A stretch of 64,000 nucleotides of DNA from positions 6,722-70,721 of the forward strand of contig MFNF01000061.1 of assembly GCA_001783715.1 (NCBI GenBank). Direction: 5' to 3'. Of the stretch, positions 5,588 to 33,300 are shown in pieces. The stretch is from Candidatus Lambdaproteobacteria bacterium RIFOXYD2_FULL_56_26. GTDB lineage: Bacteria > SAR324 > XYD2-FULL-50-16. The translations under genes were made by a program, and so were the position numbers. Numbering within the stretch: position 1 is the first letter of the stretch; the number at the start of each line of letters is the position of its first letter. Below the pieces are notes generated by a model, which ran no database searches, was not told where the DNA came from, and was given only the letters and a program-made list of their open reading frames with translations.

Positions 5588-6589
5588 ATGCGTTCCAGAC
5601 TGACGTTGGGGCTTTTGGGTGGGCTCTTTGTCCTGCTCATTACCGATCTTTTTGGGGTTGGGAACCTGCAACGGTTGATCGAAACGGTGCTGCCGCCGCC
5701 TAGTGGACGCAAGCCCAACCTGCTGGTCGGGACCAACCCTTGGCCGGGCTATGCTCCCTTTTACCTAGCCCGAAGGCTGGGGCTCTACCAAGGCAAAGGT
5801 GTTGATTTTGTGGAATACCCCAGCACCAGCATGACGCTCAAGGCGCTGCGCAACGGAGCCATCCAGGCCGCCGCCCTGACCTTGGATGAAACCCTGCAGC
5901 TCTACGAGCTGGGGACGCAGTTTAAGGTGGTGCTGGTCTTGGACTATTCGGCCGGGGCCGATGCCATCTTAGCCCGCCCTCCCTTGGCCAGTTTGGCCGA
6001 CCTGAAGAACAAAAAAATAGCTTTTGAAAATAGTACATTAGGCGGGTATTTTTTGACCCGGACCTTGGAACGGAGCCGGATGCACCCCGATGACTTCGAG
6101 TTGGTGCCCCTGGAGGTTGACGAACATCTCCAGGCCTACCTGCAAGAGAAGGTGGATGGAGTGGTCACCATGGAGCCCTACAAGACTGCCTTGGAACGGG
6201 CCGGGGCCAAAAAGATCTTCAGTTCCAAAGACCTGCCCCAGGAGATTATTGATGTACTGGTGGTCCGGGAAGACTGGCTCGCCGGGGATGTCCGGGCTTT
6301 GAAGTTTTTGGCCGAAGGTTGGTTTGAGGCGCTCCGGCAGTTGCAGGAAGCGCCGGAGCAAATGGCTCCCCTTTTGGGCGAACAGCTGAACCTCAATCCC
6401 AAAGAGGCCCTGGAGGCCGTGGCGGGAGTCCAGCTCTTGGACCAAAAAGCCAATCTGGCGCTTTTTGTGGGCAGCCCTTCCCCCTTCGACCAGTCGGCCA
6501 GAGTGACCAATGATTTTCTCCTGAGCCACCAGCTGTTGTCCCGCAAAGTAAGCCTGGAAGGTTTGGCCGACCCTATTTTGCTGCGGTAA
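5588..6589 (+). CDS. periplasmic substrate-binding protein (NMT1/SsuA-like), probable partner of the downstream sensor kinase
   Basis: 333 aa with signal/TM N-terminus and type-2 periplasmic binding fold similar to sulfonate/nitrate/bicarbonate SBPs; ends 8 nt before the kinase gene. Confidence 0.6.
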   Translation: MRSRLTLGLLGGLFVLLITDLFGVGNLQRLIETVLPPPSGRKPNLLVGTNPWPGYAPFYLARRLGLYQGKGVDFVEYPSTSMTLKALRNGAIQAAALTLDETLQLYELGTQFKVVLVLDYSAGADAILARPPLASLADLKNKKIAFENSTLGGYFLTRTLERSRMHPDDFELVPLEVDEHLQAYLQEKVDGVVTMEPYKTALERAGAKKIFSSKDLPQEIIDVLVVREDWLAGDVRALKFLAEGWFEALRQLQEAPEQMAPLLGEQLNLNPKEALEAVAGVQLLDQKANLALFVGSPSPFDQSARVTNDFLLSHQLLSRKVSLEGLADPILLR

Positions 6590-6596
6590 AAGGACC

Positions 6597-9011
6597 ATGA
6601 ACCAGCCCATTTTGTTTCCACTTCGTTTGACCATTCCGCTGATACTGTTGCTTTTTACTGCAACTTTGTCCTTGTGGAGCATCAAATACAACGGTTCCTT
6701 GTCCAACGACAAAGTGGAGGCTCAGGCCAGCGCCGCCTTGATCCGCCTGATGACCCGGCTGCAAATCACCATCGAACATGCCTACGCCAAGGACGACAAA
6801 ACCGCCGTCTCCCGGGAGATCAGCGGGCTGGCTTCGGACCTCGACTACAGCTACATCCTTTTGTTTGACGAACGGGGCAAGATCCTGGCCTCGAACCGGT
6901 CCGCCTTTGTGGGGCAAGGGTTTATCGAAAAACTTGAATCGATCCCCGAAGGGGAGCGCCAGCAGATCTTCACCCATTTGAGTGAAGTGCGGCGCAATCT
7001 TTCGGGCCAAGTGTACCTAACCGAAGACCGGGGACGGCTGGTGGGGATCTATCCCTTGATCTTGAGCCAAAACTCCAAGGCCATCCGGGACCCTTCACGG
7101 GGATACCTGATGGTTTTTGAAGATCTGCTCGGACAAAAACGGGAGGCCTTGGAGTCGGTTTACCGGCAGTTGATCCAGTTTTGCTTGATTTTGGGGATTT
7201 TGACCGTTGGGCTGGGGGTCTTTTTTGACCAGATCGTCTCTCGGCGGATCAACCGGATTGTCGGGGTAACCCGGCGGGTAGGCCGGGGGGATTATTCAGT
7301 CCGCACTGGCCTGACCGGGCTCGATGAGATCGGCAGGCTGGCCTCGGCGATTGACGAAATGGCCCGGGCCCGGGCCGCCGCCGAAGGGATGTTGCTCAAG
7401 CTGAACCGGGCGGTCGAACAGAGCCCAGTCTCGGTGGTGATCACCGATTTGGCCGGGCAGATCGAATATGCCAACCCCAAACTTTTGGAGGTCACCGGCT
7501 ACGAACTGGAAGAGGTGATCGGCCAAAACCCCAGACTGTTTAAATCCGGGTACCACGACTCCCTGTTTTACCAAAAACTTTGGACCGAGCTGACCGCCGG
7601 AAGACAGTGGAAGGCGGAGATGCGCAACAAAAAGAAAAACGGGGAACCCTTTTGGGAATGGGTGACCATCACCCCCATTCTGGACGACTCGGGCCGGATC
7701 ATCAACTACCTGGGGGTCAAGGAAGACATCACCCTCAAAAAACAGCGAGACGAAGAACTGCTCAAGGCCCGGAGGGATGCAGAGGCGGCCAACCAAGCCA
7801 AAACCAACTTTCTGGCCACCATGAGCCACGAATTGCGCACCCCGATGAACGGCATCATGGGGATGAGTCAGATTCTTCTGGCCGAAGAGGAGTCGCCGGA
7901 CAAGCGTTCCATGCTGGACGTGGTGATGAATTCCTCCATCGCCCTGGTGGGGGTGCTAGACGAGATCCTCGACATCACCAAAATCGAGGCCAGCCAGTTC
8001 CAGGCCCACCTGGAGCCGACCGACCTCAACCAGTTGCTCAAGGACTTGGGCGAGATGTTCTGGGCCGCCGCCAAGTCCAAGAGCCTCGACCTGACCTGCT
8101 CGGCCCAAGGACTGACCCAAAGTTTGTACCAAGTGGACCCCAACATGGTCACCAAGGTGCTTTCCAACCTCCTGGCCAATGCGATTAAATTTACCGCCAA
8201 AGGTGCGGTCCGGCTCCGGGTCAAGGAGATCGAACTCCAAGGGGCTCTGGCCCTACGTTTTGAGGTGGAAGACACCGGTGTCGGGATTCCGGCCTCCAAG
8301 ATCGACCAGATCTTTTTGAGCTTCACCCAAGTGGACAGCAGCTCCACCCGGCGTTACGGCGGAGTGGGCTTGGGGCTGGCGATTGCGCTCAATTTAGTCC
8401 GGCTGATGGGCGGCGAACTGGGGGTCCAGAGTAGAGAAGGCGAGGGGAGTTTGTTTTGGTTTGAGTTGCAAGCACAACCGGGGATTAGCACCCGGGAGGC
8501 GGAGTTGGTGTTTGCTCCCCAGAACTCCAAAGAACCGGAAAACCTGGATTTAATCGAAACTTCCCCTAGGGTGCTCTCCAGGCGGACACAAACCCAAGGG
8601 GAGAACGGCAAAGGGAAAAAAATCCTGGTGGTGGAAGACGACAGCATCAATGCTTCGGTGATCCACCGGATCTTGACCTTAAACGATTTTACGGTGATCG
8701 AGGCGGAAAACGGAAAAAAAGCCTTGGAAATCCTGAGCACCCAAAGGGTGGACTTGGTCTTGATGGACTGCCTGATGCCAGTTTTAGACGGCTACCGGAC
8801 CTCCAAGATGATCCGGGATAAGGAAGCCAAAGGGGAACTCAAGGGCCATGTGCCCATTGTTGCGGTGACCGCCAAGGCGATGGAAGAGGACCGGGCCAAA
8901 TGCCTGGAATCCGGCATGGACGACTATCTGTCCAAGCCGGTGGAGATGAAGCACCTCTTGGAAATCATCGCCGACCTTCTGGGCCGAGACAAAGGCCGGG
9001 TCCTGCTTTAG
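6597..9011 (+). CDS. hybrid sensor histidine kinase/response regulator (periplasmic sensor-TM-HAMP-PAS-HisKA-HATPase-REC)
   Basis: Two TM segments flank a ~170-aa periplasmic domain; PAS ([15 protein letters not shown]); H-box ([15 protein letters not shown]); HATPase (N/G boxes); C-terminal REC (ILVVEDD...[14 protein letters not shown]...SKP). Confidence 0.9.
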
Positions 9012-9018
9012 GGGGAGC

Positions 9019-9630
9019 CTAGCCCTTGCGGTGCCACTGGGTAAAAAGAAAAAGCTGCTCCTTCCCCCAAGGGGTGGTGTGCAGGGTTTGGGCTTGTTGT
9101 ACCAGCTCAAACCCCGGCCCCCAGAGGGCCTGTAGGGACTCGATACTGTGCCGCACCACCGGCAACCCGCTGCACTTCTCCGGCCCCTGTGGGGCAAAAC
9201 CTCCGATCACCAACCTCCCCCCTTTGAGCAACGCCCCCTTCATCTGTTGCGCATAGACCTGCTGGTCCTTCGGGTCGGTCAAAAAATGCAGCACCGCCCG
9301 GTCGTGCCAACAGCGGTAACGGGGCTCCAAGGGCTGGGCCAAAAGATCGGCGGCGATCAGCTTGACCTGAGCCCTTTGGGCACCAAGCCTGTGGTGGACT
9401 TGGTCCAGGGCGGTCGGGCTCAGGTCCAAGAGGGTCACGTCCTCAAACCCCTCCGCCAGCAAATGGTCCACCAGATAAGAACAGCCGGCCCCTACGTCGA
9501 TCAAAGGCTGGGCCTCCTCCTTGGGGCCGATCATCTGGATCGACCTCTGTGGCTGGGTCTGGTACCAGCCCAACTGCTCAAAACTCTTTTGCTGGTAGGT
9601 TGATTCCCAATGTTGCCGTAACTCACTCAT
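9019..9630 (-). CDS. class I SAM-dependent methyltransferase
   Basis: SAM-binding motif I (IDVGAGCSYLVDHL) and acidic motif II (LLDLS); start set at Met preceding the MTase fold rather than at the ORF-track start. Confidence 0.7.
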   Translation of the reverse strand: MSELRQHWESTYQQKSFEQLGWYQTQPQRSIQMIGPKEEAQPLIDVGAGCSYLVDHLLAEGFEDVTLLDLSPTALDQVHHRLGAQRAQVKLIAADLLAQPLEPRYRCWHDRAVLHFLTDPKDQQVYAQQMKGALLKGGRLVIGGFAPQGPEKCSGLPVVRHSIESLQALWGPGFELVQQAQTLHTTPWGKEQLFLFTQWHRKG

Positions 9631-9683
9631 TGCTGATAAACTCCTAGGACCGATTTTGGCGAGACTCCGTTTCTCCATATGTA

Positions 9684-9727
9684 TATAGAGTAATTCTAAT
9701 AGAGTGATTTGTAATAGAGCAATTTGA
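9684..9727. promoter_or_regulatory. three direct ATAGAG-NN-ATT repeats at 16-bp spacing in the AT-rich divergent control region (methyltransferase <-> dsrC)
   Basis: atagagtaattc (9684), atagagtgattt (9700), atagagcaattt (9716); region 9631-9963 is ~70% AT in a ~60% GC genome. Confidence 0.4.
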
Positions 9728-9963
9728 GTTTTTTGGACGGGAGGGCGGGAAAAACAAACGAGGTTTCGTTCCGCTGACCGTAAGTAAATTTTATTTCCTG
9801 CTGTTATACAATGCTTTTTAAAGCCAAAAACCAGGGGCTCCAAAAAAAAAATCGAGCTATGCAAAAAATTATTGTAATTTTATATCGTTATATTAGAATA
9901 TATCAAATCTTTTATTACGAAACTGTTTTTCCTTGTTTTTTCAACCTTAACCAGAGGACCGAC

Positions 9964-10299
9964 ATGAGCTTTGAAGTCAACGGCAAGACCATCGAGACCG
10001 ATGAGGACGGATATTTAAAAGATGTGACCCAGTGGTCGAAAGAAGCAGCCGAATATCTGGCCAAGACCGAAGACGTGACCATGACCGACAAGCATTGGGA
10101 AGTGATCAACTTCTTGCGGGATTATTATGGTCAGTACCAAATCGCCCCGATGGTGAAGATTTTGACCAAGGAAATCGCCAGCCTGCACGGGATCGACAAA
10201 AAGGATGCTTCCAAGATGCTGTACGACCTGTTCCCTTCGGGACCGGCCAAGCAGGCCTGCAAGATCGCCGGGCTGCCCAAGCCGACCGGCTGCGTTTAG
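9964..10299 (+). CDS. dsrC: DsrC, dissimilatory sulfite reductase gamma subunit / TusE-like sulfur carrier
   Basis: 111 aa ending in the DsrC C-terminal arm ...AGLPKPTGCV with both conserved Cys; ATG at 9964 follows the AT-rich leader. Confidence 0.9.
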   Translation: MSFEVNGKTIETDEDGYLKDVTQWSKEAAEYLAKTEDVTMTDKHWEVINFLRDYYGQYQIAPMVKILTKEIASLHGIDKKDASKMLYDLFPSGPAKQACKIAGLPKPTGCV

Positions 10300-10320
10300 G
10301 CCAAAGGGCGAACCCAAGAA

Positions 10321-10347
10321 AAACCATTTGGGGATTCCGGGACCCCC
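10321..10347 (+). other. GC-rich stem-loop in the dsrC-dsrA intergenic region
   Basis: ggggattccggg-acc-cccggaacccc: ~11-bp stem with one bulge; no U-tract follows. Confidence 0.35.
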
Positions 10348-10379
10348 GGAACCCCCACTGACAAAACCCAGGAGAGAGA

Positions 10380-11585
10380 ATGTCAAACCAAGCGCACAGC
10401 TCAAGCGAAACGCCCTTGTTGGATGAATTGCTCAAAGGTCGGTGGCCCAGTTTCGTCAAAGAGATGAAAGAAATGGCGGACACCAAACCGATGGTCAGGG
10501 ACGTGTTGCGGCAGCTGGAAAAATCATATGTCGATAAAAAGACCCACTGGAAGCATGGCGGTATCGTTGGGGTGAAGGGATACGGTGGGGGCATCATCGG
10601 TCGCTACTCGGACAGCCCCGATGAATTCCCCGGCGCAGCCCACTTTCACACGGTACGGGTCAACCAACCGGCCGGGTGGTTCTATTCCTCTCAAGCATTG
10701 AGAGACCTTTGCGACATCTTTGAGAAATACGGTTCCGGTTTGACCAACATGCATGGTTCCACCGGCGACATCATTCTCCTGGGCACCACCACCGACGAAT
10801 TGGAACCGATCTTCTCGGCGTTGACCGAAAAGGGTTGGGACTTGGGCGGCTCCGGTTCGGCGCTGCGCACCCCCAGCTGCTGCGTTGGGCCTGCTCGTTG
10901 CGAATGGGCGATGTTTGACTGTCTGGACCTGTGCCACGACATCACCCACCATTACCAGGACGAGATTCACCGCCCTGCCTTCCCCTACAAGTTTAAGATC
11001 AAGGTTTCCGGCTGCCCCAACGACTGCGTCTCGGCCATTGCTCGGGCCGACTTTTCGGTGATCGGCACCTGGAAAGACCATATCCAGGTCAACCAAGCGG
11101 CCATGCAAGAGTATGTTGCCAAGGGCCGCAACCCGATCAAGGATGCCGTCCTGCTCTGCCCCACCAAAGCGATTGATTGGGATGGGAAAGAGATCAAGAT
11201 CGACAACGAAAACTGTGTGCGCTGTATGCAGTGCATCAACGCCTACCCCAAGGCCCTCAAACCGGGCAAGGAACGTGGGGCCACGATTTTGATTGGGGCC
11301 AAGGCTCCGATCGTCCAAGGGGCACTGTTCAGCTCGGTGCTGGTTCCCTTCATGGAACTGGAAAAACCCTATGACGACCTCAAGGAACTGCTCGAAAAAC
11401 TTTGGGACGTTTGGGACGACCACGGAGAAAACAAAGAGCGGATCGGCGAATTGGTGGAGCGGATGGGCAAAGGGGAGTTCCTTGAGCGCATCGGGATCAA
11501 GCCGGACATCCAGATGGTCATCCATCCCCGGGAGAATCCTTACGTCTTTTACGACGAGTACTACGAAGAAGTGGACGAAAAATAA
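10380..11585 (+). CDS. dsrA: dissimilatory sulfite reductase alpha subunit
   Basis: 401 aa with sirohaem-[4Fe-4S] Cys clusters (CCVGPARC...C, CPNDC) and a ferredoxin-like insert (CPTKAIDW...CVRCMQC); colinear with dsrB. Confidence 0.92.
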
Positions 11586-11653
11586 ACCCTTTGGACGGAC
11601 TCGCCCAAAAGCAACTTGCATTGGACTAACCCCTTTTGCTTTAAGGAACCTAC

Positions 11654-12724
11654 ATGAACGTCAGAAAAACAGATATCGGATGTCCCGATTACAAACAGTT
11701 CCTGCCGCCGATGATTCTCAAGAATTACGGCCAATGGGATTGGCATGAAGTGATCAAGCCCGGCGTATTTGTCCATCAGGCCGAATCCGGCGACCGGCTT
11801 TACACCGTCAGGGTAGGCAGCCCCCGGCTTTTGAACGTCAAGTCGCTGCGGTTTTTTACCGATGTGGCCGACAAGTACTGCGACGGCTTTTTGCGGTTTA
11901 CCAGCCGGAGCAACGTGGAATTCATGACCCCGGTGTTCGAGAACATCGACCCGATGATCGCCATGCTGCAAAGCGAAGGCTGGCCGGTCGGCGGTACCGC
12001 CAACTCGGCCTCCAACGTGATCCATACCCAAGGCTGGGTCCATTGCCACACCAGTGCTACCGATGCTTCGGGGCTGGTCAAATGTGTGATGGACGACCTT
12101 TATGACGACTTCACCAACCACAGCCTGCCCGGTCGGATGAAGTTGGCGGTCGCCTGTTGCCTCAACATGTGCGGGGCGGTTCACGCTTCGGACATTGCGA
12201 TTTTGGGCATCCACCGCCGTCCGCCGAAAGTGGACCCCCACAATCTGGCCAACTACTGCGAGGTGCCGACTACCATCGCTGCTTGTCCGACCGGCGCTAT
12301 CCGGGCCGACATTTTGGATGGCCAAAAAACCTTGAAAATCAACGAGTCCCAGTGTATGTACTGCGGCGCTTGTTACACCGCCTGCCCCAAGCTGCCCATC
12401 GCCGACTCGGTCAACGATGGTCTTTCCATTTGGGTTGGCGGCAAGTGCGCCAACGCCCGTTCTACCCCTCGGTTTACCAAAATGGTGGTGCCCTTTATCC
12501 CCAACAACCCACCTCGGTGGCCTGAAGTGGTTGAAGCGGTGCGGACCATCGTGGATGTGTACAAGGCCCATGGGAAACCTTGGGAGCGGTTGGCCGATAT
12601 GATCGACCGGATCGGTTGGGCGAGGTTCTTCAAACTCACCGGGTTTGAGTTCACCAAGTACCACATCGACGATTACAAGTTGGCGACCAAGTCGTACAAC
12701 GCTTCCACTCACCTGCGTTTCTAA
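11654..12724 (+). CDS. dsrB: dissimilatory sulfite reductase beta subunit
   Basis: 356 aa with DsrB motifs ([25 protein letters not shown]) and a ferredoxin domain (CPTGAIR...[12 protein letters not shown]). Confidence 0.92.
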
Positions 12725-12734
12725 AGGAGACCTT

Positions 12735-12983
12735 ATGGCAGTAGATACCCAAACCATTGCCGATGCCATGTTGGCAATGGTTACCGAAGCAGCCGGCGTG
12801 AAGCGCTACAAGCCCGGCGACTTGAGCAAAGCCATGGTGGCCAAATTTGCCGATGACGGTGTCAGCAAGGACGATTGCAAAGACGCAATCCGGGTCTTGG
12901 TGGACAGCGAGAAGTTGGTTTACACCTACTTCAACGGTACCTGGCTGGAAATTCCCCACCAGGAAGGTTCCGCAAAAGGGTAA
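12735..12983 (+). CDS. dsrD: DsrD (small winged-helix protein of reductive dsr operons)
   Basis: 82-aa ORF immediately after dsrB with RBS aaggaga; size, position and K/Y/F-rich winged-helix-like pattern fit DsrD. Confidence 0.7.
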   Translation: MAVDTQTIADAMLAMVTEAAGVKRYKPGDLSKAMVAKFADDGVSKDDCKDAIRVLVDSEKLVYTYFNGTWLEIPHQEGSAKG

Positions 12984-13009
12984 GGCTCCAGGGCCTCCCG
13001 TTTGTTTTT

Positions 13010-13049: not shown

Positions 13050-13089
13050 CCATACCTCCATCCATGTCCACCTTTACCCAGAGGTTCAG

Positions 13090-13458
13090 ATGTTTGTGAT
13101 TTCCCAAAAGGCGGCAGAAAAGTTTCTGGAGTCCATGGAACAGATCGGCGAGACCGGCTTGTTTTTGCGGGTTGCCGCCCGCAAGCACCCCGACCAGGGG
13201 ATTGCCTACAACATGGGCTTTGACCACGCCACCCCTGAGGACAAGCAGTTTGAAATGGCGGGCCTTAAGGTCTGCTATGATGAAGAAACAGAGCCGAACA
13301 TCAAGGACATGGTGATCGACTTTGGGGAGCATGACGGCATCGAGCAGTTTATCTTTATGAATCCCCAAGACGCTCCCGCCAACGACCCCAGCAGTTGCGG
13401 AACCACCAAGGGTTCGGGCAGTTGCGGTTCGGGCAAGGGCACCTGCACCTGCGGTTAG
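13090..13458 (+). CDS. IscA/HesB-fold protein lacking the canonical IscA Cys ligands, with a Cys/Gly-rich C-terminal tail (DsrR-like?)
   Basis: N-terminal ~95 aa align to the IscA fold (GLFLRVAARKHPDQGIAYNMGFD...FIFMNP), but the CxGC/CGCG ligands are replaced by SSCGTTKGSGSCGSGKGTCTCG. Confidence 0.55.
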   Translation: MFVISQKAAEKFLESMEQIGETGLFLRVAARKHPDQGIAYNMGFDHATPEDKQFEMAGLKVCYDEETEPNIKDMVIDFGEHDGIEQFIFMNPQDAPANDPSSCGTTKGSGSCGSGKGTCTCG

Positions 13459-13461
13459 GCG

Positions 13462-13980
13462 GTGATGGATCTGGAAACATTGCTCAGGGAACAGCAGGAT
13501 TCCATCTTGGAAGCTTGGCTGAATGCGGTTTTTGAGCTGTACCCGGTTGAGGCTTGGCGGTTTTTAAAATCCTCCCGAGACTTTTACCAAAACCCCTTGG
13601 GCCACACCCTGGCCTCGGGGCTGAGGGGGCTTTATGCTGAGCTTTTGGAAGGGACCGATGCCAACAAATTGGCCCCTTTGCTCGACCAAGTGATCCGGGT
13701 GTTGGCGGTGCAGGAACTGTTGCCCAGCCAAGCGCTCAATTTTTTGTTTTACTTGAAACGGATCGTTCGGACCCAGGCGGAGAAACAAGGTCTCTCCCCC
13801 CAAGACCCCGAACTTTTGGGCTTTGACAACGTAGTGGACCAACTGTTGCGGCTTTCTTTCGACATTTACGTCAAATGTCGTGAAAGGATCTTTCAACTCA
13901 AGGTGGAAGAGCAGACCCTCCAGACCGAAAAACTGATCCAATTGGCCAACAGCGGCTTTGGGGCGCTTAGAAAACTTTAA
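13462..13980 (+). CDS. conserved hypothetical protein between the dsrR-like ORF and dsrM (possible DsrT-like)
   Basis: 172-aa soluble helical ORF, translationally adjacent to dsrM; assignment to DsrT rests on position and size, not a recognised motif. Confidence 0.35.
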   Translation: MMDLETLLREQQDSILEAWLNAVFELYPVEAWRFLKSSRDFYQNPLGHTLASGLRGLYAELLEGTDANKLAPLLDQVIRVLAVQELLPSQALNFLFYLKRIVRTQAEKQGLSPQDPELLGFDNVVDQLLRLSFDIYVKCRERIFQLKVEEQTLQTEKLIQLANSGFGALRKL

Positions 13981-14998
13981 TCAGGTAACGACCGTGAGAA
14001 TCCTTCTTCCCTTTGTCACCACCTTGGTTTTGGGTGCCGCCGCCTATTTTTTCGCCCAGGCGGGGGCCCAGTGGTTTTTGGGGGTCCTGCTGCCCTACTT
14101 GGCCTTTGTGGTGTTTGTGGTGGGCTTTTCGGCCAAGATCCTCTCCTGGGCTAAAGTGCCGGTTCCCTTCCGCATCCAGACCACCTGCGGGCAAGCGAAG
14201 TCCTTGGACTGGATCAAGGCCAACGAACTGGAATCCCCTCACACCAAATTGGGGGTAGTGGTACGGATGGCTTTGGAAGTATTGGTGTTCCGCAGCCTTT
14301 TTCGCAACACCTGGACCACCTTAAAAAGAGACGAGAAAAACGGCCCCCGGCTGGTCCACGAGTCGGACAAAAGCCTTTGGCTGTTTGGGCTTTTGTTCCA
14401 CTGGTCCTTTTTGCTGATCTTTGTGCGGCACTACCGGTTTTTCCTGGAGCCGGTGCCCTTTTTTGTCCCGATTTTGGAAAGGTTTGACGGGCTGTTCCAG
14501 ATCACCTTGCCCACCTTTTACCTGACCGATCTTTTGATCCTACTGGGGATCACCGCCCTCTTTTTGCGCCGGTTGGTGGACCCGAAGGTCAAGGCCATTT
14601 CTCTGCCTGCCGACTTCTTCCCGCTCTTTTTGATCGGGGCGATTGCCTGCACCGGCATTGCCATGCGCTATGTCCACAAAGTGGACATCACCAAGGTCAA
14701 GGCCCACATCCAGGGGCTGATGGCCTTTAACCCCGGAGCGACGGACCTTGAGATCGGGGCGATCTTTTACGCCCACCTCGCCTTGGTGAGTGTGTTGGCC
14801 ATGTACTTTCCCTTTTCCAAGTTGATGCACATGGGCGGGGTCTTTTTTAGCCCGACCCGGAACCAGACCAATGACTCCAGGGAAGTCCGGCACCTCAACC
14901 CCTGGAACCCGAAGATGAAGATTCGCACCTATGCCGAGTATGAAGACGAGTTCCGCACCAAAATGAAGTCGGCGGGTCTGCCTTTGGACCAAGAATAG
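13958..14998 (+). CDS. dsrM: DsrM, membrane haem-b subunit (NarI-like) of the DsrMKJOP complex
   Basis: 346 aa, five or more TM helices with conserved His in helices, NarI-like; 5' end overlaps the previous ORF, so an internal start near 13994 is possible. Confidence 0.85.
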   Translation: MGRLENFNQVTTVRILLPFVTTLVLGAAAYFFAQAGAQWFLGVLLPYLAFVVFVVGFSAKILSWAKVPVPFRIQTTCGQAKSLDWIKANELESPHTKLGVVVRMALEVLVFRSLFRNTWTTLKRDEKNGPRLVHESDKSLWLFGLLFHWSFLLIFVRHYRFFLEPVPFFVPILERFDGLFQITLPTFYLTDLLILLGITALFLRRLVDPKVKAISLPADFFPLFLIGAIACTGIAMRYVHKVDITKVKAHIQGLMAFNPGATDLEIGAIFYAHLALVSVLAMYFPFSKLMHMGGVFFSPTRNQTNDSREVRHLNPWNPKMKIRTYAEYEDEFRTKMKSAGLPLDQE

Positions 14999-15027: not shown

Positions 15028-16704
15028 ATGTCGAAATATGTACCGAAAATGGCCGAAATGGCCGCCTTGATGAACGGGCAACAAAGCCTGCTCACCGGCA
15101 AAGCTCCCGCCAGCGGCTGGCTGGAGACCCCACCGGAATTCCGGCCCGGCAACTACTGCTACAGTGCCAAGCCCGAAGCGCTCAACGGGTTGGGCCTGCC
15201 CCACCCCCGAGAGTGGGACCCCGCCGAGGCGGACTGGAAGCTGCCCGAGAACTGGATGCAGCTCATGCGAGACGGCATGAAGGCTCGGCTGGAGAAGAAC
15301 CGGGCCTTTAAATTGTTCATGGATGTTTGCGTCCGCTGCGGTGCCTGTGCCGACAAGTGCCACTTCTTTTTGGGCACCGGGGACCCCAAGAACATGCCGG
15401 TCATGCGGGCCGAACTGATGCGCTCGATCTACCGGGGGGAGTTCACCACCGCCGGGAAGATCTTGGGCAAACTGGGCGGAGCCCGGAAGTTCACCGAAGA
15501 CGCAGTCAAAGAATGGTACATGTATTATTACCAATGTACCGAATGCCGCCGCTGCTCGGTCTTCTGCCCCTACGGGATCGACACCGCCGAAATCACCATG
15601 ATGGCTAGGGAGATGTTGCACCTGATCGGGGTCAACATCAACTGGATCCTCAAACCCGCTTCGGACTGCAACCGCACCGGGAACCACCTGGGGCTGGAGC
15701 CCCACGCCTTTGTCTCTTCGGTCAACAGCATCTGTGAGGACCTCGAAGATGTCACCGGCATCGCCATTGAACCCAGCTTCAACCGCAAGGGGGCAGAGGT
15801 GTTGTTCATCACCCCTTCCGCCGATGCTTTTGCCGTGCCGGGCATGTACACCATGATGGGTTACCTGCTCTTGTTTGAACACATCGGCTTGGACTACACC
15901 ATCAGCACCTATGCCTCCGAAGGGGGCAACTTTGGGCTTTTTTCCTCCAACGAGATCATGAAAAAGCTCAACGCCAAGATGTACCACGAGGCGGAGCGGC
16001 TCAAGGTCAAGTGGATCTTGGGCGGAGAGTGCGGCCACATGTGGCGGGTGGTTCACCAGTACATGGGCACCATGAACGGCCCGGCGGACTTCCTAGAGGT
16101 CCCCAAGAGCCCGATCACCGGCACGGTCTTTCACAACGCCAAGGCCACCAAAATGGTGCACATCGCCGAGTTCACCGCCGACCTGATCCGGCACAAAAAA
16201 CTGAAGCTCGACCCCTCTCGGAACAACCACCGGAACGTCACCTTCCATGACTCCTGCAACACCAGCCGGGGCATGGGGATGATCGAAGAGCCCAGGTACA
16301 TCTTAAACGCTGTGACCAACAACTTCCATGAAATGGACGAAAACTGCATCAAGGAGAAGACCTTCTGCTGCGGTTCCGGCTCGGGGCTCAACACCGAGGA
16401 ATACATGGACATTCGGATGCGAGGCGGTTTCCCCCGTGCTTCGGCGGTCAAGGAAGTCAAAGAGAAAAAAGGGGTCAACATGTTGACCGCCATTTGTGCC
16501 ATCGACCGGGTAGCACTGACCGCCAGCATGAACTACTGGGTCCCTGGAGTCGGGGTTTCGGGTTTGCACGAGCTGGTGGGCAACGCTTTGGTGATGGAAG
16601 GCGAAAAGAGCCGAACCGAAGACTTGCGAGAGGAAGACATGGATGTTGAAGTGAAGGGAGCAGACGCACAAGCAGCCGAGAAGGAGGAGGAAAAAGATGT
16701 ATAA
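15028..16704 (+). CDS. dsrK: DsrK, HdrD-like catalytic subunit with CCG domains
   Basis: 558 aa; ferredoxin-like CxxCxxCxxxC (CVRCGACADKC, CTECRRCSVFCP) and CCG-domain Cys motifs (CCGSGSG). Confidence 0.9.
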   Translation: MSKYVPKMAEMAALMNGQQSLLTGKAPASGWLETPPEFRPGNYCYSAKPEALNGLGLPHPREWDPAEADWKLPENWMQLMRDGMKARLEKNRAFKLFMDVCVRCGACADKCHFFLGTGDPKNMPVMRAELMRSIYRGEFTTAGKILGKLGGARKFTEDAVKEWYMYYYQCTECRRCSVFCPYGIDTAEITMMAREMLHLIGVNINWILKPASDCNRTGNHLGLEPHAFVSSVNSICEDLEDVTGIAIEPSFNRKGAEVLFITPSADAFAVPGMYTMMGYLLLFEHIGLDYTISTYASEGGNFGLFSSNEIMKKLNAKMYHEAERLKVKWILGGECGHMWRVVHQYMGTMNGPADFLEVPKSPITGTVFHNAKATKMVHIAEFTADLIRHKKLKLDPSRNNHRNVTFHDSCNTSRGMGMIEEPRYILNAVTNNFHEMDENCIKEKTFCCGSGSGLNTEEYMDIRMRGGFPRASAVKEVKEKKGVNMLTAICAIDRVALTASMNYWVPGVGVSGLHELVGNALVMEGEKSRTEDLREEDMDVEVKGADAQAAEKEEEKDV

Positions 16705-17074
16705 CGCCAAGATCATTCTTCCGGTCCTGCTGGTTTTTTTAGGTTTGTTGACCTACCCGCTGTGGTCCCAAAAAGCCTCGGCCCCTCCGGTCCTGGCTAC
16801 CCCGCTCAAAGGGGAGCATTGTATTGAATCCAAGGATTGGATGCGGGCCAACCACATGCAGCTGTTGGAACAGTGGCGGCATTCGGTGGTCCGGGACCAA
16901 AACCGGGACCATGTCGCTACCGATGGCCAGCATTACAACAAAAGTCTGAGTAACACCTGCCTGGACTGCCACCAAAAAGAACAGTTTTGCGACAGTTGCC
17001 ATACCTACGCCAGCGTCCACCCCTACTGCTGGGAATGCCATTTTGACCCCAAGGAGGTGAACCATGTCCATTGA
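16697..17074 (+). CDS. dsrJ: DsrJ, periplasmic trihaem cytochrome c
   Basis: 125 aa, signal anchor, three CxxCH motifs (CLDCH, CDSCH, CWECH); start overlaps dsrK. Confidence 0.9.
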   Translation: MYNAKIILPVLLVFLGLLTYPLWSQKASAPPVLATPLKGEHCIESKDWMRANHMQLLEQWRHSVVRDQNRDHVATDGQHYNKSLSNTCLDCHQKEQFCDSCHTYASVHPYCWECHFDPKEVNHVH

Positions 17075-17843
17075 CCGGAGAGATTTTTTGAAGAAACTGG
17101 GCTTGGGCTCCATGGTGAGCCTGGGCGGTTTCGGGTTTTTGAAAAAAATGGGTGGCCCGGAAGAGGCGATTGCTTCGGGGGCGACCTTGGAAACCGCCGA
17201 CCCCAACAAAGTACGTTGGGGCATGGTGATCGAAATGGGCAAGTGCCAGGAAGGTTGCACCGACTGCATCTCGGTCTGCCACCTGACCCACAACGTACCC
17301 GACCATGGGAACAAAAAAGACGAGATCAAGTGGATCTGGAAAACCGGCTACAAGCACCTCTTTACCAATGAGGCGCACCAGTACGCCCAGGATGGTTTGC
17401 CGGACAAGCCCTTTTTGACCTTGTGCAACCACTGCGACAACCCCCCTTGCACCCGGGTGTGCCCCACCGAAGCGACCTTCGCTCGGCCCGATGGGATTGT
17501 GCAGATGGACTTCCACCGCTGCATCGGCTGTAGGTTTTGTATGGCCGGCTGCCCTTACGGTTCCAGGAGCTTCAACTGGCGGGACCCCAGACCGAACCTC
17601 AAGGAAATCAACCCCAATTTCCCGACCCGAGAGCGTGGAGTGGTGGAGAAGTGTAATTTCTGTACCGAACGGATCGACAAGGGAGAACGTCCCGCTTGTG
17701 TCGAGGCCTGCAAGGAAGGGGTACTGACCTTCGGTAACCTCAACGACCCCAATTCGGAGATCCGGCAACTGCTGGCCGAAAAACGTACCAACCAACGAAA
17801 ACCCGAGTTGGGCACCAAGCCCTCGGTGTTTTACATCGTCTGA
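17064..17843 (+). CDS. dsrO: DsrO, periplasmic ferredoxin-like Fe-S subunit (Tat-exported)
   Basis: Twin-arginine motif RRDFLKK; multiple 4Fe-4S Cys clusters ([34 protein letters not shown]...C). Confidence 0.9.
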
Positions 17844-17857
17844 GCCGGGAGAACGAA

Positions 17858-19009
17858 ATGATTGAAAAGGCATTGACCGGAAACCGGAGCTACTTTGGCT
17901 GGCTGGCTCTGTTGGCCCTGGTGGCGGCCAACGGGGTTTATTTTTACGGGCAGCAGTTGACCTACGGTCTGGGGATCACCGGGATGAGCCGGGACATCTC
18001 CTGGGGGGTTTACATCGCCCAATTCACCTTCATGGTCGGCGTGGCCGCCAGTGCGGTGATGTTGGTTCTGCCCTACTACATCCACAACTACAAAGCCTTC
18101 GGGAAGATTGTGGTGTTGGGGGAGTTTTTGGCGGTGGCGGCGGTCTCCATGTGCATGATGTTTATCATGGTGGACATGGGCAAGCCGATGCGGTTCCTCA
18201 ACGTCATGCTTTACCCCTCACCCCACTCGATCCTCTTTTGGGATGCGACGGTGCTCAACGTTTACCTGTTCCTCAACCTGCTTTGCGGTTGGGTGGCCTT
18301 GGAGTCGGAAAAAAAGGGCACTCCCCCGCCCAAGTGGCTCAAGCCCTTTATCTACCTGTCCATCCCTTGGGCCTTTTCGATCCACACGGTGACCGCCTTT
18401 TTGTACGCCGGTTTGCCCGGAAGGCACCTGTGGCTGACCGCCATCATGGCCCCTCGCTTTTTGGCCTCCGCCTTTGCCGCCGGTCCGGCTTTGTTGATCC
18501 TCCTAGCCTTGCTGCTGCGCCGGGTGGCCAAGTTTGATGCCGGGGACGAAGCGATCCAAAAGCTGGCCACCATCGTCACTTACGGGGTGATCGCCAACTT
18601 CTTTTTTATTGGCTTGGAGTTTTTTACCGCTTACTATTCGGGGATCCCCAGTCACCAACACAACCTGGACTACCTCTTTTTTGTGCTGGAAGGGCACGGC
18701 AACTTGGTACCCTTCTTGTGGACCTCGGTAGTTTTGGGTTTTGCCGGGATGGGCGGACTGTTGTGGCCGGGGTTGCGGAAAAACGAAAGGATTTTGGGCC
18801 TGATTTGCGGGGCGATCTTCATTTCCCTGTGGATCGACAAAGGGATCGGGTTGGTGATCGGTGGTTTTATCCCCAACCCCTTGGAAGAGATCACCGAATA
18901 CTACATCACCTGGCCCGAGTTTTCCATCACCTTGGGGATCTGGGCGATTGGGGCGATGATCTTGACCTTGCTGTACAAAATCGCCCTTTCGGTGAAAAAG
19001 GCCCAATAG
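17858..19009 (+). CDS. dsrP: DsrP, NrfD/PsrC-family integral membrane quinone-interacting subunit
   Basis: 383 aa with ~10 TM helices, NrfD-like, directly after dsrO. Confidence 0.88.
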
Positions 19010-19016
19010 GACAACC

Positions 19017-19409
19017 ATGGAATTTGAACGGCAAGAGATTGAACTGGCCTTGACCTATGTCGAGTTTGTGGACATCACCGCTTCCCTGGACCAAGAAGGC
19101 TCGGTGGTGTTTACCCGCAGCCCCTTGCCCGAAGGGATCGGCCCCGAAATGGCCGAGGAGATCAATTTTGTGGTGGATTATTACCAACGGATGATCTTCA
19201 ACGGCGACCTGGACCCGGAAGAGGAAGACCCCACCCTGCCCGTCTTTGAAGACCCGCTGGGTGAGATCAACTTCAAGCTCAAACGGTACCAGTCCGAACT
19301 GGCTTTGGAGCTAAAAAAATCCCTGGGTGTTGCCGACCACCGGAACATCAACCCCTATGCCAGGGTAATGTTACAGTACGCCGCCGAGGTCCAGAAAAAA
19401 AAATCCTGA
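19017..19409 (+). CDS. uncharacterised acidic protein translationally coupled to dsrP
   Basis: 130-aa ORF starting 8 nt after the dsrP stop; highly acidic (many E/D), no recognisable motif. Confidence 0.4.
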   Translation: MEFERQEIELALTYVEFVDITASLDQEGSVVFTRSPLPEGIGPEMAEEINFVVDYYQRMIFNGDLDPEEEDPTLPVFEDPLGEINFKLKRYQSELALELKKSLGVADHRNINPYARVMLQYAAEVQKKKS

Positions 19410-28562: not shown

Positions 28563-29171
28563 TCAAATGGTTTTGCGGACCACTCGACCAGCTAGCAACG
28601 CTACTCTACCCCTAGCCACCTCGTCCAGTGCCAAGGGGAAGATTCGGTGTTCTTCAACCAAGATGCGGGCGGCCAGGGTTTGAGCGGTGTCATCGGGCAA
28701 AACCGGTACCACCGCCTGTTCGATGATCGCCCCCGAGTCCACCCCTTCGTCCACAAAGATCACCGAACAGCCCGAATAGCGGACCCCATAATCGATCGCC
28801 TTTTGGTGGGTTTGGAGCCCGGTAAAAGCGGGCAACAAGGAGGGGTGGATGTTGACCAACTTCCCTGCCCAAGTGCGGACGAACCAAGGGGACAAAAGCC
28901 GCATAAACCCGGCCAGGGCGACCAGCTCAATCCCCTGTTCTCGCAGCGTCTGGTCCAAGACCCGGTCAAAGCTTTCCTTGTCCGCAAAGTCCTTGTGAGA
29001 GAGGACCTGGGTCTTGAGTCCGGCAGCTTGGGCTTTTTGCAGACCCGCCACCCCGGCAATGTTGCTGACCACCAGTTTAAGGTCATAAGCGGCATTCCCG
29101 GACCGCCAATGGTCGATGAGGGCCTGGAGGTTGGTGCCAGTGCCGGAGATAAAAACGGCGGTCGGGGTCAT
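28563..29171 (-). CDS. purN: phosphoribosylglycinamide formyltransferase
   Basis: 202 aa with a formyl-transferase domain ([28 protein letters not shown]). Confidence 0.9.
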
Positions 29172-30919
29172 TGGTTTTCGGGACTCGAAGCGATGACCTT
29201 TTGTTCCATCGACAACCGGTACTCAAAGTGAACCGCCTTGAGGGCCGGGTATTTGATCGAAAGGATTTGCAGAGCCAAGACGGCAGCATTGTCCCCCCGG
29301 TCGATACCCACTGTGGCCACCGGGATTCCCGGCGGCATTTGGACTATGGCCAACAAAGCGTCCTGGCCGTTCAAAGCGCTGCCCGAAACGGGCACGCCGA
29401 TCACTGGCAGCCCGGTCTCCGAAGCCACCACACCGGGCAGGTGGGCGGCCATCCCGGCAATGGCGATCAACACCTCCACCCCTTGGGCGGTCCAACGTTC
29501 GATGGTCTGCCGGGTCCGTTCCGGGGTCCGGTGGGCCGAGGAAACGATCACCTCGTAACCGATGGAAAATTCGTCCAACAGGTCGGTACCCTTTTTGGCT
29601 ATCTTGAGGTCCGAGGCACTGCCCAGGATGATCCCCACCTTGGTCCCTAGGGGAACCCCCTTTTTGAGCCCCTTGAGGCCGATGTCCCGGCGTTTTTGCA
29701 TCCCCGGCCAGTGGATCTTGGCGGCCCCTTGGTAGGCCTTTTTGAGTGCCCCTTCCAGGTCCTCGCCCAGGGCGGTGACCCCCAAGACCCTGCCGCCGTT
29801 GGTACGAAAACGGTTGCCTTCCTTGAGGGTTCCGGCGTGGAAGACTTGCAGCTCCGGCCCCTCTCCTACCTCTTCAAGCCCTTGGATGTAATGTCCTTTT
29901 TTGTAGTCCCCCGGATACCCGGCGGAGGCCAACACGATACAAGCGGCCGCTTGGTCCTTCCATTTTGGTTGGTAGCCCTTGAGCCGCCCTTGGGCCACCC
30001 GCAAGCCCAGTTCCACCAAGTCCCCGTCAAAAAGCATCATCAAAGGCTGGCATTCCGGGTCCCCGAAGCGGATGTTGTACTCCACCACGCTTGGGCGACC
30101 TTGGTCGATCATCAGGCCGATGTACAAGACCCCTTTGTAGGGGTTCCCTTCGGCGGCCATGCCCTGGAGGGTCGGCTCCACCACCTGAGCCAGGACCAAG
30201 GCCTTGACGGCCTCGTCCACCACCGGAGCGGGGGCATAACAACCCATCCCGCCGGTATTGGGACCCAGGTCCAGTTCAAAAATTCGTTTGTGGTCTTGCA
30301 GGCTGGGCAGGCAGACATAATCCTGGCCGTCGGAAAAAATAAAAAAGCTGGCTTCCTCACCGGGCAAAAAGGCTTCGATCACCAGGGTCTTCCCGGCGGG
30401 GCCAAATTTCCCGCCCAACATCTCGGCCACGGCGGCTTCGGCTTCAGGCAGGGTTTGGGCGATGACCACCCCTTTGCCTGCCGCTAGCCCGCTGGCTTTG
30501 ATCACAAAAGGTGGCTTTTGGGTGGAAAGGAAAGACTGGGCTTGGGCCAAGGTGGTACATTCGAGGTAAGCGGCAGTGGGGATTTGGTTGCGGGCCATAA
30601 AGGCCTTGGCAAAGGCTTTGCTCCCTTCGAGCCTCGCCGCTTTGGCGCTGGGGCCAACCACGGCGATGCCTGCCGCCTCCAGTTGGTCGGTCAACCCTTG
30701 GACCAGATAGTCCTCCTGGCCGATAAACACCAGTCCGACCCCCATTTCCTGGGCCTTTTTGACGATCTCCTTGGGCTCGGTCAGGCCCCAGCAGGGGGCC
30801 AGGGCCTCAATCCCGCCGTTGCCGGGGGTCACGTAGAGCGCTTCCAATTGGGGACTTTTTTGTAAGGCATAGGCCAGGGCATGCTCCCGGCCCCCAGCCC
30901 CAACTACCAGAACCTTCAT
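29168..30919 (-). CDS. fused phosphoribosylamine-glycine ligase (PurD) / N5-CAIR mutase (PurE)
   Basis: 583 aa; N-terminal ~420 aa form the PurD ATP-grasp ([16 protein letters not shown]...); C-terminal ~160 aa form PurE ([11 protein letters not shown]...SSAHRTP...GIPVATV); 4-nt overlap with purN. Confidence 0.85.
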
Positions 30920-32529: not shown

Positions 32530-33300
32530 ATGAAAATCCAATTTTTGGGGGTTGGTGCCGCCTTTACCACCGCCCAATATTACCAATCCAACCTGCTGCT
32601 CACCTCGGAGCGAGGGAAAAAACTTTTGCTGGACGCTGGGGGCGACATTCGCTTTGCCTTGTCCGAAGCCGGGGTCCCTGCGTCTTCCCTAGACGGGGTT
32701 TATCTCTCCCACCAACATGCGGACCACATCGGGGGCATGGAGTTTTTGGCCTACGCCACCTTCTTTGACCCTTCGGTTCCCAAACTGAAGCTTTATGTTG
32801 AAAGGGAATTGGCCACAGAGGTTTGGGAACACAGCTTGCGGGGCGGCTTGAGTGTGGTGGATGACCAACCCAGGGGCCTGAACGATTTTTTTGAGGTCCG
32901 GCTGCTGGACCTCAAGCAATCTTTTGTCTGGGAAGGCTGGACCTTTACCTTGTACAAAATGCCCCATGTGATCACCAAGGTTGGCTCGATCTATTCTTAC
33001 GGCCTCCTGGCGGAGCGGCAGGGTTATCCGGGGTTCTTTTTCAGCTCCGATTCCACCTTTGCCCCGGAGATTCTAAAGGCAGTGGCCCCCAAGGTCCAAT
33101 TGATCTTCCATGACTGTGAAACCCGCCTGCCCCCCACCGGGGTCCATTGCCACTACTTGGAACTCAAAACCCTGCCCCAGTCGGTCAAATCCAAGCTCTG
33201 GGCCTACCATTACCAGCCGGACCCGCCCTACCAACCACAAGCGGACGGGATGCTGGGGTTTGTCAAAAAAGGCCAAGAGTTTCACTTCAAAAAATCCTGA
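32530..33300 (+). CDS. MBL-fold metallo-hydrolase
   Basis: HxHxDH motif (SHQHADHIGG) and downstream His/Asp ligands. Confidence 0.7.
   Translation: MKIQFLGVGAAFTTAQYYQSNLLLTSERGKKLLLDAGGDIRFALSEAGVPASSLDGVYLSHQHADHIGGMEFLAYATFFDPSVPKLKLYVERELATEVWEHSLRGGLSVVDDQPRGLNDFFEVRLLDLKQSFVWEGWTFTLYKMPHVITKVGSIYSYGLLAERQGYPGFFFSSDSTFAPEILKAVAPKVQLIFHDCETRLPPTGVHCHYLELKTLPQSVKSKLWAYHYQPDPPYQPQADGMLGFVKKGQEFHFKKS

Follow-up and report, generated by a model that had tools for sequence, protein, structure and literature searches.

A DsrR-family protein with a conserved four-cysteine tail in the dsr operon of a SAR324 bacterium

Among the genes of dsr operons, dsrR is one of the least understood, and the sole biochemical characterization of its product concerns the Allochromatium vinosum protein, which is without tail cysteines. 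A. vinosum DsrR has the fold of the A-type carrier IscA, and is described as binding neither iron nor an iron-sulfur (Fe-S) cluster, yet as having a part in regulating the oxidation of sulfur (Grimm et al. 2010, as cited in PMC11406059). Outside the Pseudomonadota, DsrR is limited to SAR324, Nitrospirota and Nitrospinota, and many of the 31 SAR324 genomes whose dsr content was analyzed contain DsrR and DsrT besides DsrD and DsrEFH, with the lineage placed at the transition between reductive and oxidative Dsr metabolism (Klier et al. 2024, PMC11406059). Here we describe a DsrR-like protein encoded in a dsr operon of Candidatus Lambdaproteobacteria bacterium RIFOXYD2_FULL_56_26 (SAR324), within a stretch of 64,000 nucleotides of contig MFNF01000061.1 (positions 6,722 to 70,721), the whole of which is referred to below as the window. 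An initial annotation of the window took such a homologue to be undescribed and the cluster to be reductive. From the repertoire reported by Klier et al., a DsrR homologue alongside DsrD, DsrT and DsrEFH in SAR324 had therefore already been described, and 'reductive' is too simple a label for a lineage placed at that transition; the locus itself is an ordinary, already catalogued dsr operon. With the DsrR family and its presence in SAR324 beside DsrD and DsrT already known, what is new, as far as could be told, is the division of DsrR into a tail-less and a four-cysteine-tailed class, together with the specific tail motifs of SAR324.

The start of the gene at the ATG at 13090 coincides with the MF or ML start of every homologue; a longer open reading frame (ORF) in the same frame, with a TTG start at 12847, overlaps the upstream gene and is unsupported by the homologues, and the opposite-strand ORFs across 13090-13458, also without support, were disregarded. 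The core of the protein is predicted to adopt the IscA/HesB A-type-carrier α-β fold, as the initial annotation had proposed. It matches the Pfam family Fe-S_biosyn (PF01521) over residues 4-92, barely above the cut-off (26.8 against 26.3 bits), and scores below the cut-offs of all NCBIfam A-type-carrier models, including TIGR00049 (46.0 against 58.8 bits), the IscA equivalog (29.5 against 150.6 bits) and SufA (27.3 against 136.2 bits). AlphaFold, supplied with nine sequences, modelled residues 1-96 confidently, with a mean predicted local distance difference test (pLDDT) score of 82-92 per 10-residue block in residues 1-90. When the model was compared with the PDB by Foldseek, confident fold matches were confined to IscA of E. 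coli (1R94, E = 4e-7), DsrR of A. vinosum (2K4Z, E = 6e-7, 34% identity) and SufA (2D2A), and the superposition on E. coli IscA (1R94/1S98) gives a target-normalized template modelling score of 0.81 and a root-mean-square deviation of 1.9 Å.

The A-type carriers IscA, SufA and ErpA share with the window protein this fold and the presence of cysteines on a C-terminal segment past the NP motif, but differ in their ligands. In a HMMER alignment, RKHPDQGIAY of the window protein lies opposite RTSGCSGMAY of E. coli IscA, so that HPDQG occupies the place of the first conserved cysteine, Cys35. The absence of this residue, claimed in the initial annotation, is genuine and general: the Cys35 column contains no cysteine in any member of the SAR324-type clade, nor in 149 DsrR-like representatives (described below). 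A complete IscA cysteine triad in a shifted register, the outcome that would have overturned that claim, was looked for and ruled out, as no clade member has a cysteine near the Cys35 column. His33 and Asp35 were considered as replacement ligands and rejected, this segment being unconserved in close homologues (HPDQ, HSEQ, LPET, DPVV, TQEQ). As a separate observation, a protein 99% identical to that of the window (P0001) has Leu in place of Arg27 at an otherwise invariant position of the family (L26-R27), which may reflect strain variation or an assembly error.

We assign the window protein to the DsrR family with high confidence. Its best solved relative by sequence is A. vinosum DsrR 2K4Z (50.4 bits, E = 2.4e-12), ahead of E. 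coli IscA (27.2 bits), which bears out the suggestion that DsrR is the closest known relative; the two proteins share the IscA fold, the absence of Cys35, a dsr operon context and the core motifs YNMGFD (Y-x-MGFD) and FIFMNPQD (F-IF-x-NP-x-D). Hidden Markov models (HMMs) were built here from the cores of tail-less proteobacterial DsrR-like, tailed proteobacterial DsrR-like and Cys35-bearing IscA-like proteins. In that order, the window core scores 93, 84 and 72 bits, compared with 127, 119 and 73 bits for A. vinosum DsrR and 50, 56 and 84 bits for E. coli IscA. In a neighbour-joining tree with E. coli IscA as its root, the SAR324 clade (45 of 60 bootstrap replicates) is nested in a clade of Cys35-less proteins (48 of 60), with weak branching within the proteobacterial part (26 of 60). 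Taken together, the alignments, scores and tree place the protein in the DsrR family as a basal member that lies somewhat near to IscA, the orthologue of SAR324/Lambdaproteobacteria type.

This protein departs from A. vinosum DsrR in two respects. The canonical place of dsrR is after dsrN (dsr...OPN-R), where the A. vinosum gene also lies, whereas the window gene stands between a DsrD-like gene and dsrT. A. vinosum DsrR lacks all three cysteine ligands of IscA and ends in ...NPRDPTYRPPS without tail cysteines, whereas the window protein, although likewise devoid of Cys35, continues for about 20 further residues that carry four cysteines; that the characterized protein has no such tail had been correctly stated. 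Since about 40% of the DsrR clade is tailed, including proteins encoded at canonical loci, the absence of ligands describes A. vinosum DsrR and not the family as a whole.

The tail of the window protein (SSCGTTKGSGSCGSGKGTCTCG) contains C103, C112, C119 and C121 in the pattern C-x8-C-x6-C-x-C, with C121 as the penultimate residue. Five tail cysteines had been counted at first; the fifth, C62, lies on a core strand and is unconserved. AlphaFold gives residues 97-122 a pLDDT below 50, which predicts disorder. The four tail cysteines are invariant in 8 of 8 close homologues (49-65% identity), in which the other tail residues vary, and four tail cysteines occur in a further 17 clade sequences from genome loci and a representative library; because of this, the four-cysteine tail is, judged from these alignments, conserved far beyond chance, and it is likely to act as a functional unit. 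The initial description of a Cys-rich tail replacing the CGCG motif of IscA holds as regards the tail, a conserved segment rich in Gly, Ser, Thr and Cys, but not as regards simple replacement. In HMMER alignments, C103 alone falls on the CGCG motif of IscA from E. coli and Aquifex, and a C-x-C pair (C-T-C) is kept 16 residues downstream, so that the ligand loop looks displaced and expanded, with four tail cysteines where the A-type carriers have the CGC pair (Cys99 and Cys101).

Far from being novel, as had been supposed, such tails recur through the DsrR family. When 1.84 billion cluster representatives were searched exhaustively with a profile, 2226 matched at E values up to 1e-3, and the best 150 of these, together with the genome-locus sequences, yielded the 149 sequences without Cys35. 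After the NP motif, 83 of these have no cysteine, 58 have three or four (exactly four, the mode, in 43) and five have one or two, while three sequences with more than four all grouped among IscA-like sequences in the neighbour-joining tree. The count is thus bimodal, at zero or three to four, and about 40% of the Cys35-less DsrR-like cluster representatives carry three or four tail cysteines, among them proteins of dsrN-dsrR loci. Of 61 tailed representatives, 23 have their last cysteine in the penultimate position. A word-indexed search with a proteobacterial DsrR profile returned more than 5600 proteins at E values up to 1e-8; among the 120 matches listed, all 117 that were newly fetched carry two to four tail cysteines, and 85 carry four. 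Named sources of tailed proteins include Sulfuricella, Sulfuricellaceae, Thiohalomonadaceae and metagenome-assembled genomes (MAGs) of Gammaproteobacteria. The four-cysteine tail is a common and apparently undiscussed feature of the DsrR family, no discussion of a cysteine tail in DsrR or A-type carriers having been found in the literature searched, which did not extend to Grimm et al. 2010. On these counts, A. vinosum DsrR is representative of the tail-less half of the family alone.

The Cys-tailed DsrR proteins of Beta- and Gammaproteobacteria (e.g. MDA8095172.1, from a Betaproteobacteria MAG), annotated merely as 'iron-sulfur cluster assembly accessory protein', resemble the window protein in the lack of Cys35 and in a Gly-rich, disordered-looking tail with three or four cysteines. 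They differ in tail motif (GGCGSGGCG-like, as against C-x8-C-x3-6-C-x-C in the SAR324 type) and in context, following dsrN in dsr(EFHC)MKLJOPN with TP_methylase/CysG immediately after or one gene on and with no DsrT or DsrD neighbour. All five Cys-tailed proteins that were looked up outside the SAR324-type clade are encoded after dsrN, directly or past a second dsrC, in oxidative-type operons, and in each case the next gene, or the one after it, encodes a uroporphyrin methylase/CysG; the longest of these loci (L020) reads dsrEFH-C-M-K-L-J-O-P-N-(C2)-R. A tail-less relative was found at the same post-dsrN position. In Beta- and Gammaproteobacterial contigs (L018-L024), Cys-tailed dsrR stands after dsrN, in some cases past a second copy of dsrC, and precedes TP_methylase or CysG (siroheme synthase) directly or after a gene for a pyridine-nucleotide disulfide oxidoreductase, and a divergent pair of genes for a GAF-histidine kinase and a GerE response regulator comes next in six of these seven contigs.

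A further point of comparison is an IscA of Nitrospirota (L017, positions 10001-10369 of MAG contig JBAZLV010000001.1), which, like the window protein, has a distal C-G-S/T-G-C-x-C motif (CGSGCEC) at its extreme C-terminus, but which keeps a full triad (GCCG and a proximal CDCG), is 30% identical and lies outside any dsr operon. Its operon comprises a cytochrome c assembly gene, hemA, hemC, hemD, iscA and hemB. Cys-rich tails are therefore also present on true A-type carriers, and can be linked to haem/siroheme synthesis.

The best overall explanation, which we judge slightly likelier to be right than wrong, is that the protein is a SAR324-type DsrR whose tail is a displaced IscA ligand loop forming a four-thiolate site for a metal or Fe-S centre. 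The gene would be expressed together with the rest of dsrC-A-B-(D-like)-R-T-MKJOP, and the tail of its product would be the C-terminal ligand loop of IscA, displaced and expanded into a proximal cysteine followed by C-x3-6-C-x-C, which would form a discrete four-thiolate site. That the tail binds a metal or a cluster is an even call, and the narrower proposal that its ligand is specifically iron or Fe-S is tentative. Given its ancestry among the A-type carriers, the site would most likely hold iron or an Fe-S cluster, either inside a single tail or shared by the pair of tails in a dimer. By this means, DsrR might help to keep up the level of the Dsr proteins, which are rich in Fe-S and siroheme, or aid their maturation, or it might adjust this according to redox or iron status. 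Since A. vinosum DsrR, itself without a tail, is cited as having a part in the control of sulfur oxidation, the core role of DsrR must be independent of the tail; the tail site would add a metal-dependent function onto this core, and the A. vinosum protein would be a derived form retaining the core protein-interaction function only. In support of a displaced ligand loop are the alignment of C103 with the CGCG of IscA, and the Nitrospirota IscA, in which the triad, the proximal CDCG and the distal C-G-S-G-C-x-C occur together. The neighbours of proteobacterial dsrR (dsrN and cysG/cobA), together with the hem genes around the Nitrospirota iscA, fit a role near the maturation of the cofactors of Dsr proteins.

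Several points weigh on the other side. AlphaFold gives no confident structure for the tail, and metal or cluster binding is beyond what computation can show. The spacing of the tail cysteines varies by clade (8-3-1, 7-7-2 and 4-4-4), which is unusual for a specific cluster site and would also fit a generic thiol-rich arm. The sole characterized member, A. vinosum DsrR, has no tail cysteines and, in the account of it given by Klier et al., binds neither iron nor Fe-S. The window gene adjoins a dsrD-like gene and dsrT, with no genes of cofactor synthesis beside it, and the parts of the window that were surveyed (0.4-10 kb and 19-48 kb) yielded no dsrN. Lastly, the sets behind the cysteine counts, including the figure of about 40%, were retrieved with profiles incorporating a Cys-rich tail, and are biased towards tails that are alike in length and composition.

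The four-thiolate reading could be extended to the family as a whole, in which case the Cys-tailed DsrR proteins (about 40% of the family) would be working Dsr-dedicated carriers of metal or Fe-S (or sulfur), the four-thiolate tail replacing the IscA triad. The evolutionary order would then run from a tailed IscA resembling the Nitrospirota protein, through loss of Cys35, to loss of the tail, with the SAR324 proteins as the intermediate. We regard this extension as speculative and, on the whole, doubtful.

Of the alternatives, the one that survives best, although we think it unlikely, is that the tail is a thiol redox or zinc switch, in which binding of Zn(II) or formation of reversible disulfides would tie regulation by DsrR, possibly together with DsrT, to redox or sulfide status. 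The Cys4-Zn switch of Hsp33 and the zinc-binding anti-sigma factors are models for such a thiol switch, to which the tail is compared by analogy. Exactly four cysteines are conserved, including a CxC pair, and the variable spacing between clades would suit a flexible thiol site more easily than one fixed cluster geometry. The tight coupling to dsrT is consistent with a switch, the RsbRD_N domain of its product being part of a stress-sensing module, as is the regulatory role ascribed to DsrR in the cited account. Against a switch, the tail has no CxxC-CxxC zinc-knuckle signature, and the data do not separate zinc from iron. Moreover, proteobacterial Cys-tailed dsrR genes have no adjacent dsrT, and Klier et al. 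(PMC11406059) did not detect DsrT in Pseudomonadota; a switch therefore cannot depend on DsrT.

Less probable still is that the tail serves as a sulfur-carrying swinging arm, moving persulfide or polysulfide between Dsr components. Models for such an arm are the GGCGG C-terminus of SoxY and the two-cysteine arm of DsrC, which, like the tail, are flexible C-terminal arms bearing cysteine; this is an analogy only, as fold and family differ. The disorder of the tail and its position at the extreme C-terminus would suit an arm, as would the frequent penultimate cysteine and the GGCGS-like units of the proteobacterial tails, and the chemistry of these operons uses Cys-bound sulfur (DsrC in the window, DsrEFH in L020). 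On the other hand, known sulfur carriers use one or two active cysteines, as against none or three to four here, and the core has neither a SoxY-like nor a DsrC-like fold and no Pfam match to either family. Tail-less DsrR proteins are encoded at the same operon position, and therefore sulfur transfer cannot be the core role of the family.

Two further alternatives are very improbable. A housekeeping A-type carrier (IscA, SufA or ErpA) lying in the dsr operon by chance would account for the identical fold, the Pfam match above threshold and the weak matches to TIGR00049, IscA, SufA and ErpA, but is disfavoured by the clade-wide loss of Cys35, by NCBIfam scores that all fall under cut-off, by the greater proximity to DsrR than to IscA and by a dsr operon position fixed in 12 loci. 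Functionless low-complexity sequence would explain the composition and predicted disorder of the tail and its clade-dependent length and spacing, but hardly four cysteines that stay invariant at 40-65% identity while the adjoining residues vary, nor the family-wide bimodal cysteine count.

The existence of two DsrR classes makes metal, cluster or sulfur binding by most DsrR proteins a directly testable question, and the tail could serve as a simple marker dividing the family into two functional classes. If the tail binds iron, Fe-S or sulfur, the function of DsrR will have to be re-examined in thousands of sulfur oxidizers, including Betaproteobacteria of the Sulfuricella type, and in SAR324. 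Were the carrier reading true for the tailed proteins at large, the view of DsrR as a protein without iron or Fe-S would hold for a derived, tail-less subgroup only, and the SAR324 DsrR, keeping part of the ancestral ligand loop, would be a testable intermediate in the evolution of an accessory gene set.

A word-indexed search with the window protein returned nine only, and a genome scan, run on one genome per GTDB species with a profile alignment from which the most distant member was left out, returned 13 loci, in records titled SAR324 cluster bacterium, Candidatus Lambdaproteobacteria, 'Deltaproteobacteria', 'Pseudomonadota', 'bacterium' or, in one case, Nitrospirota. In tblastn searches with the window Dsr proteins, 12 of the 13 loci have the order dsrC-A-B-D-like-R, and 11 of these 12 go on to dsrT and dsrMKJOP as far as their contigs reach, the remaining contig stopping right after dsrR. 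The window DsrA shares 89-92% identity with its counterparts in MAGs TamC13-09 and Lambdaproteobacteria RIFOXYD2_FULL_50_16, which assigns the window to this SAR324/Lambdaproteobacteria lineage. Six loci (L008, L009, L011, L013, L015 and L016) encode a second SAR324 tail variant (ENCETSPSGCDPEGNPSCKSC, C-x7-C-x7-C-x2-C), again with four cysteines, and have R and T set apart by one more gene, some 2 kb long. In L008, the sole locus in which it was examined, this gene (10529-12205) encodes a DsrL-like flavoprotein of 558 residues (Fer4_20, Pyr_redox_2 and a C-terminal ferredoxin domain), giving the order dsrCAB-D-R-L-T-MKJOP.

The operon of the window (Table 1) has the order dsrC-A-B-(D-like)-R-T-MKJOP, followed by an ORF of 130 codons. 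The initial annotation had located the gene between dsrD and dsrM; the dsr operon context stands, but the next gene downstream is dsrT, and the upstream gene can be called no more than DsrD-like. The latter encodes a highly conserved protein (YKPGDL and YTYFNG motifs), recorded as hypothetical in public databases, for which Pfam, NCBIfam and PDB sequence searches gave no match to DsrD; its AlphaFold model is a winged helix, with DsrD 1WQ2 ranking merely 29th among many similar structures. As the winged-helix fold alone is supported, the protein is therefore named DsrD-like. The start of dsrT lies 3 nt past the stop codon of the dsrR-like gene, and in L001, L002, L006, L007 and L012 dsrT likewise comes immediately after dsrR, the two genes either overlapping slightly or lying no more than 7 nt apart; this arrangement suggests that R and T are translationally coupled and form a functional pair. 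A search for dsrEFH, dsrL and dsrN, beside the operon and in the other parts of the window that were surveyed (0.4-10 kb and 19-48 kb), was negative.

Table 1. Coordinates in the window of the dsrR-like gene, its parts and the surrounding dsr operon
Feature	Position	Strand	Basis
dsrR-like gene	13090..13458	+	122 aa plus stop, ATG start; ORF and sequence
IscA/HesB-fold core (predicted), aa 1-96	13090..13377	+	AlphaFold, Foldseek, alignments
Disordered (predicted) Gly/Ser/Thr/Cys tail, aa 97-122	13378..13455	+	pLDDT, invariant columns, codons
C103 codon	13396-13398	+	read from sequence
C112 codon	13423-13425	+	read from sequence
C119 codon	13444-13446	+	read from sequence
C121 codon	13450-13452	+	read from sequence
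Shine-Dalgarno-like AGAGG	13080..13084	+	5 nt before ATG; direct reading of sequence
dsrC	9961..10299	+	Pfam DsrC, E 4e-44; ends ...PKPTGCV
dsrA	10380..11585	+	NCBIfam TIGR02064, 570 bits (cut-off 393)
dsrB	11654..12724	+	NCBIfam TIGR02066, 478 bits (cut-off 341.5)
DsrD-like small winged-helix protein, 83 aa	12735..12983	+	dsrD position; AlphaFold pLDDT 88
dsrT, RsbRD_N protein, 172 aa	13462..13980	+	Pfam PF14361, E 7.6e-15
dsrM	13958-14998	+	Pfam Nitrate_red_gam
dsrK	15028-16704	+	NCBIfam DsrK, 708 bits
dsrJ	16697-17074	+	three CxxCH motifs in translation
dsrO	17064-17843	+	homology to Fer4_11 gene of L001/L002
dsrP	17858-19009	+	homology to NrfD gene of L001/L002
Unnamed 130-aa ORF after dsrP	19017..19409	+	conserved in related loci

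The 130-residue acidic protein encoded after dsrP has no match in Pfam, NCBIfam or the PDB; tblastn matches to it (28-62% identity) occupy the corresponding place in 10 related genome loci, and its gene may be one that accompanies dsr in this lineage and has no name as yet. In the 106-nt gap that separates the DsrD-like gene from dsrR, a weak hairpin resembling a terminator follows the DsrD-like stop codon (12983-12996, + strand; a 5 bp stem, then CCCGTTTGTT); it is unconvincing as a terminator, the regional count of such sites being within shuffled expectation. Upstream of dsrC, the window (5588-9864) is syntenic with MAG TamC13-09 (L001, 528-4602), the shared genes encoding two HSP20 proteins (one at the L001 end), a binding protein of NMT1-like type, a hybrid histidine kinase with PAS/HAMP and receiver domains and, divergently, an S-adenosylmethionine methyltransferase; the hybrid kinase may serve the dsr operon as its own sensor.

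Elsewhere in the window, Rfam and tRNA scans revealed one tRNA-Gly only, far from the dsr locus. An ORF of 583 codons (29168-30919, - strand), which adjoins purN- and purA-like genes, contains the GARS N, A and C domains of purD and the AIR carboxylase domain of purE, and has the appearance of a fusion between purD and purE. In an otherwise housekeeping neighbourhood, a 256-residue protein with a metallo-beta-lactamase fold (32530-33300, + strand) matches the Pfam Anti-Pycsar family Apyc1 with 108 bits (cut-off 50).

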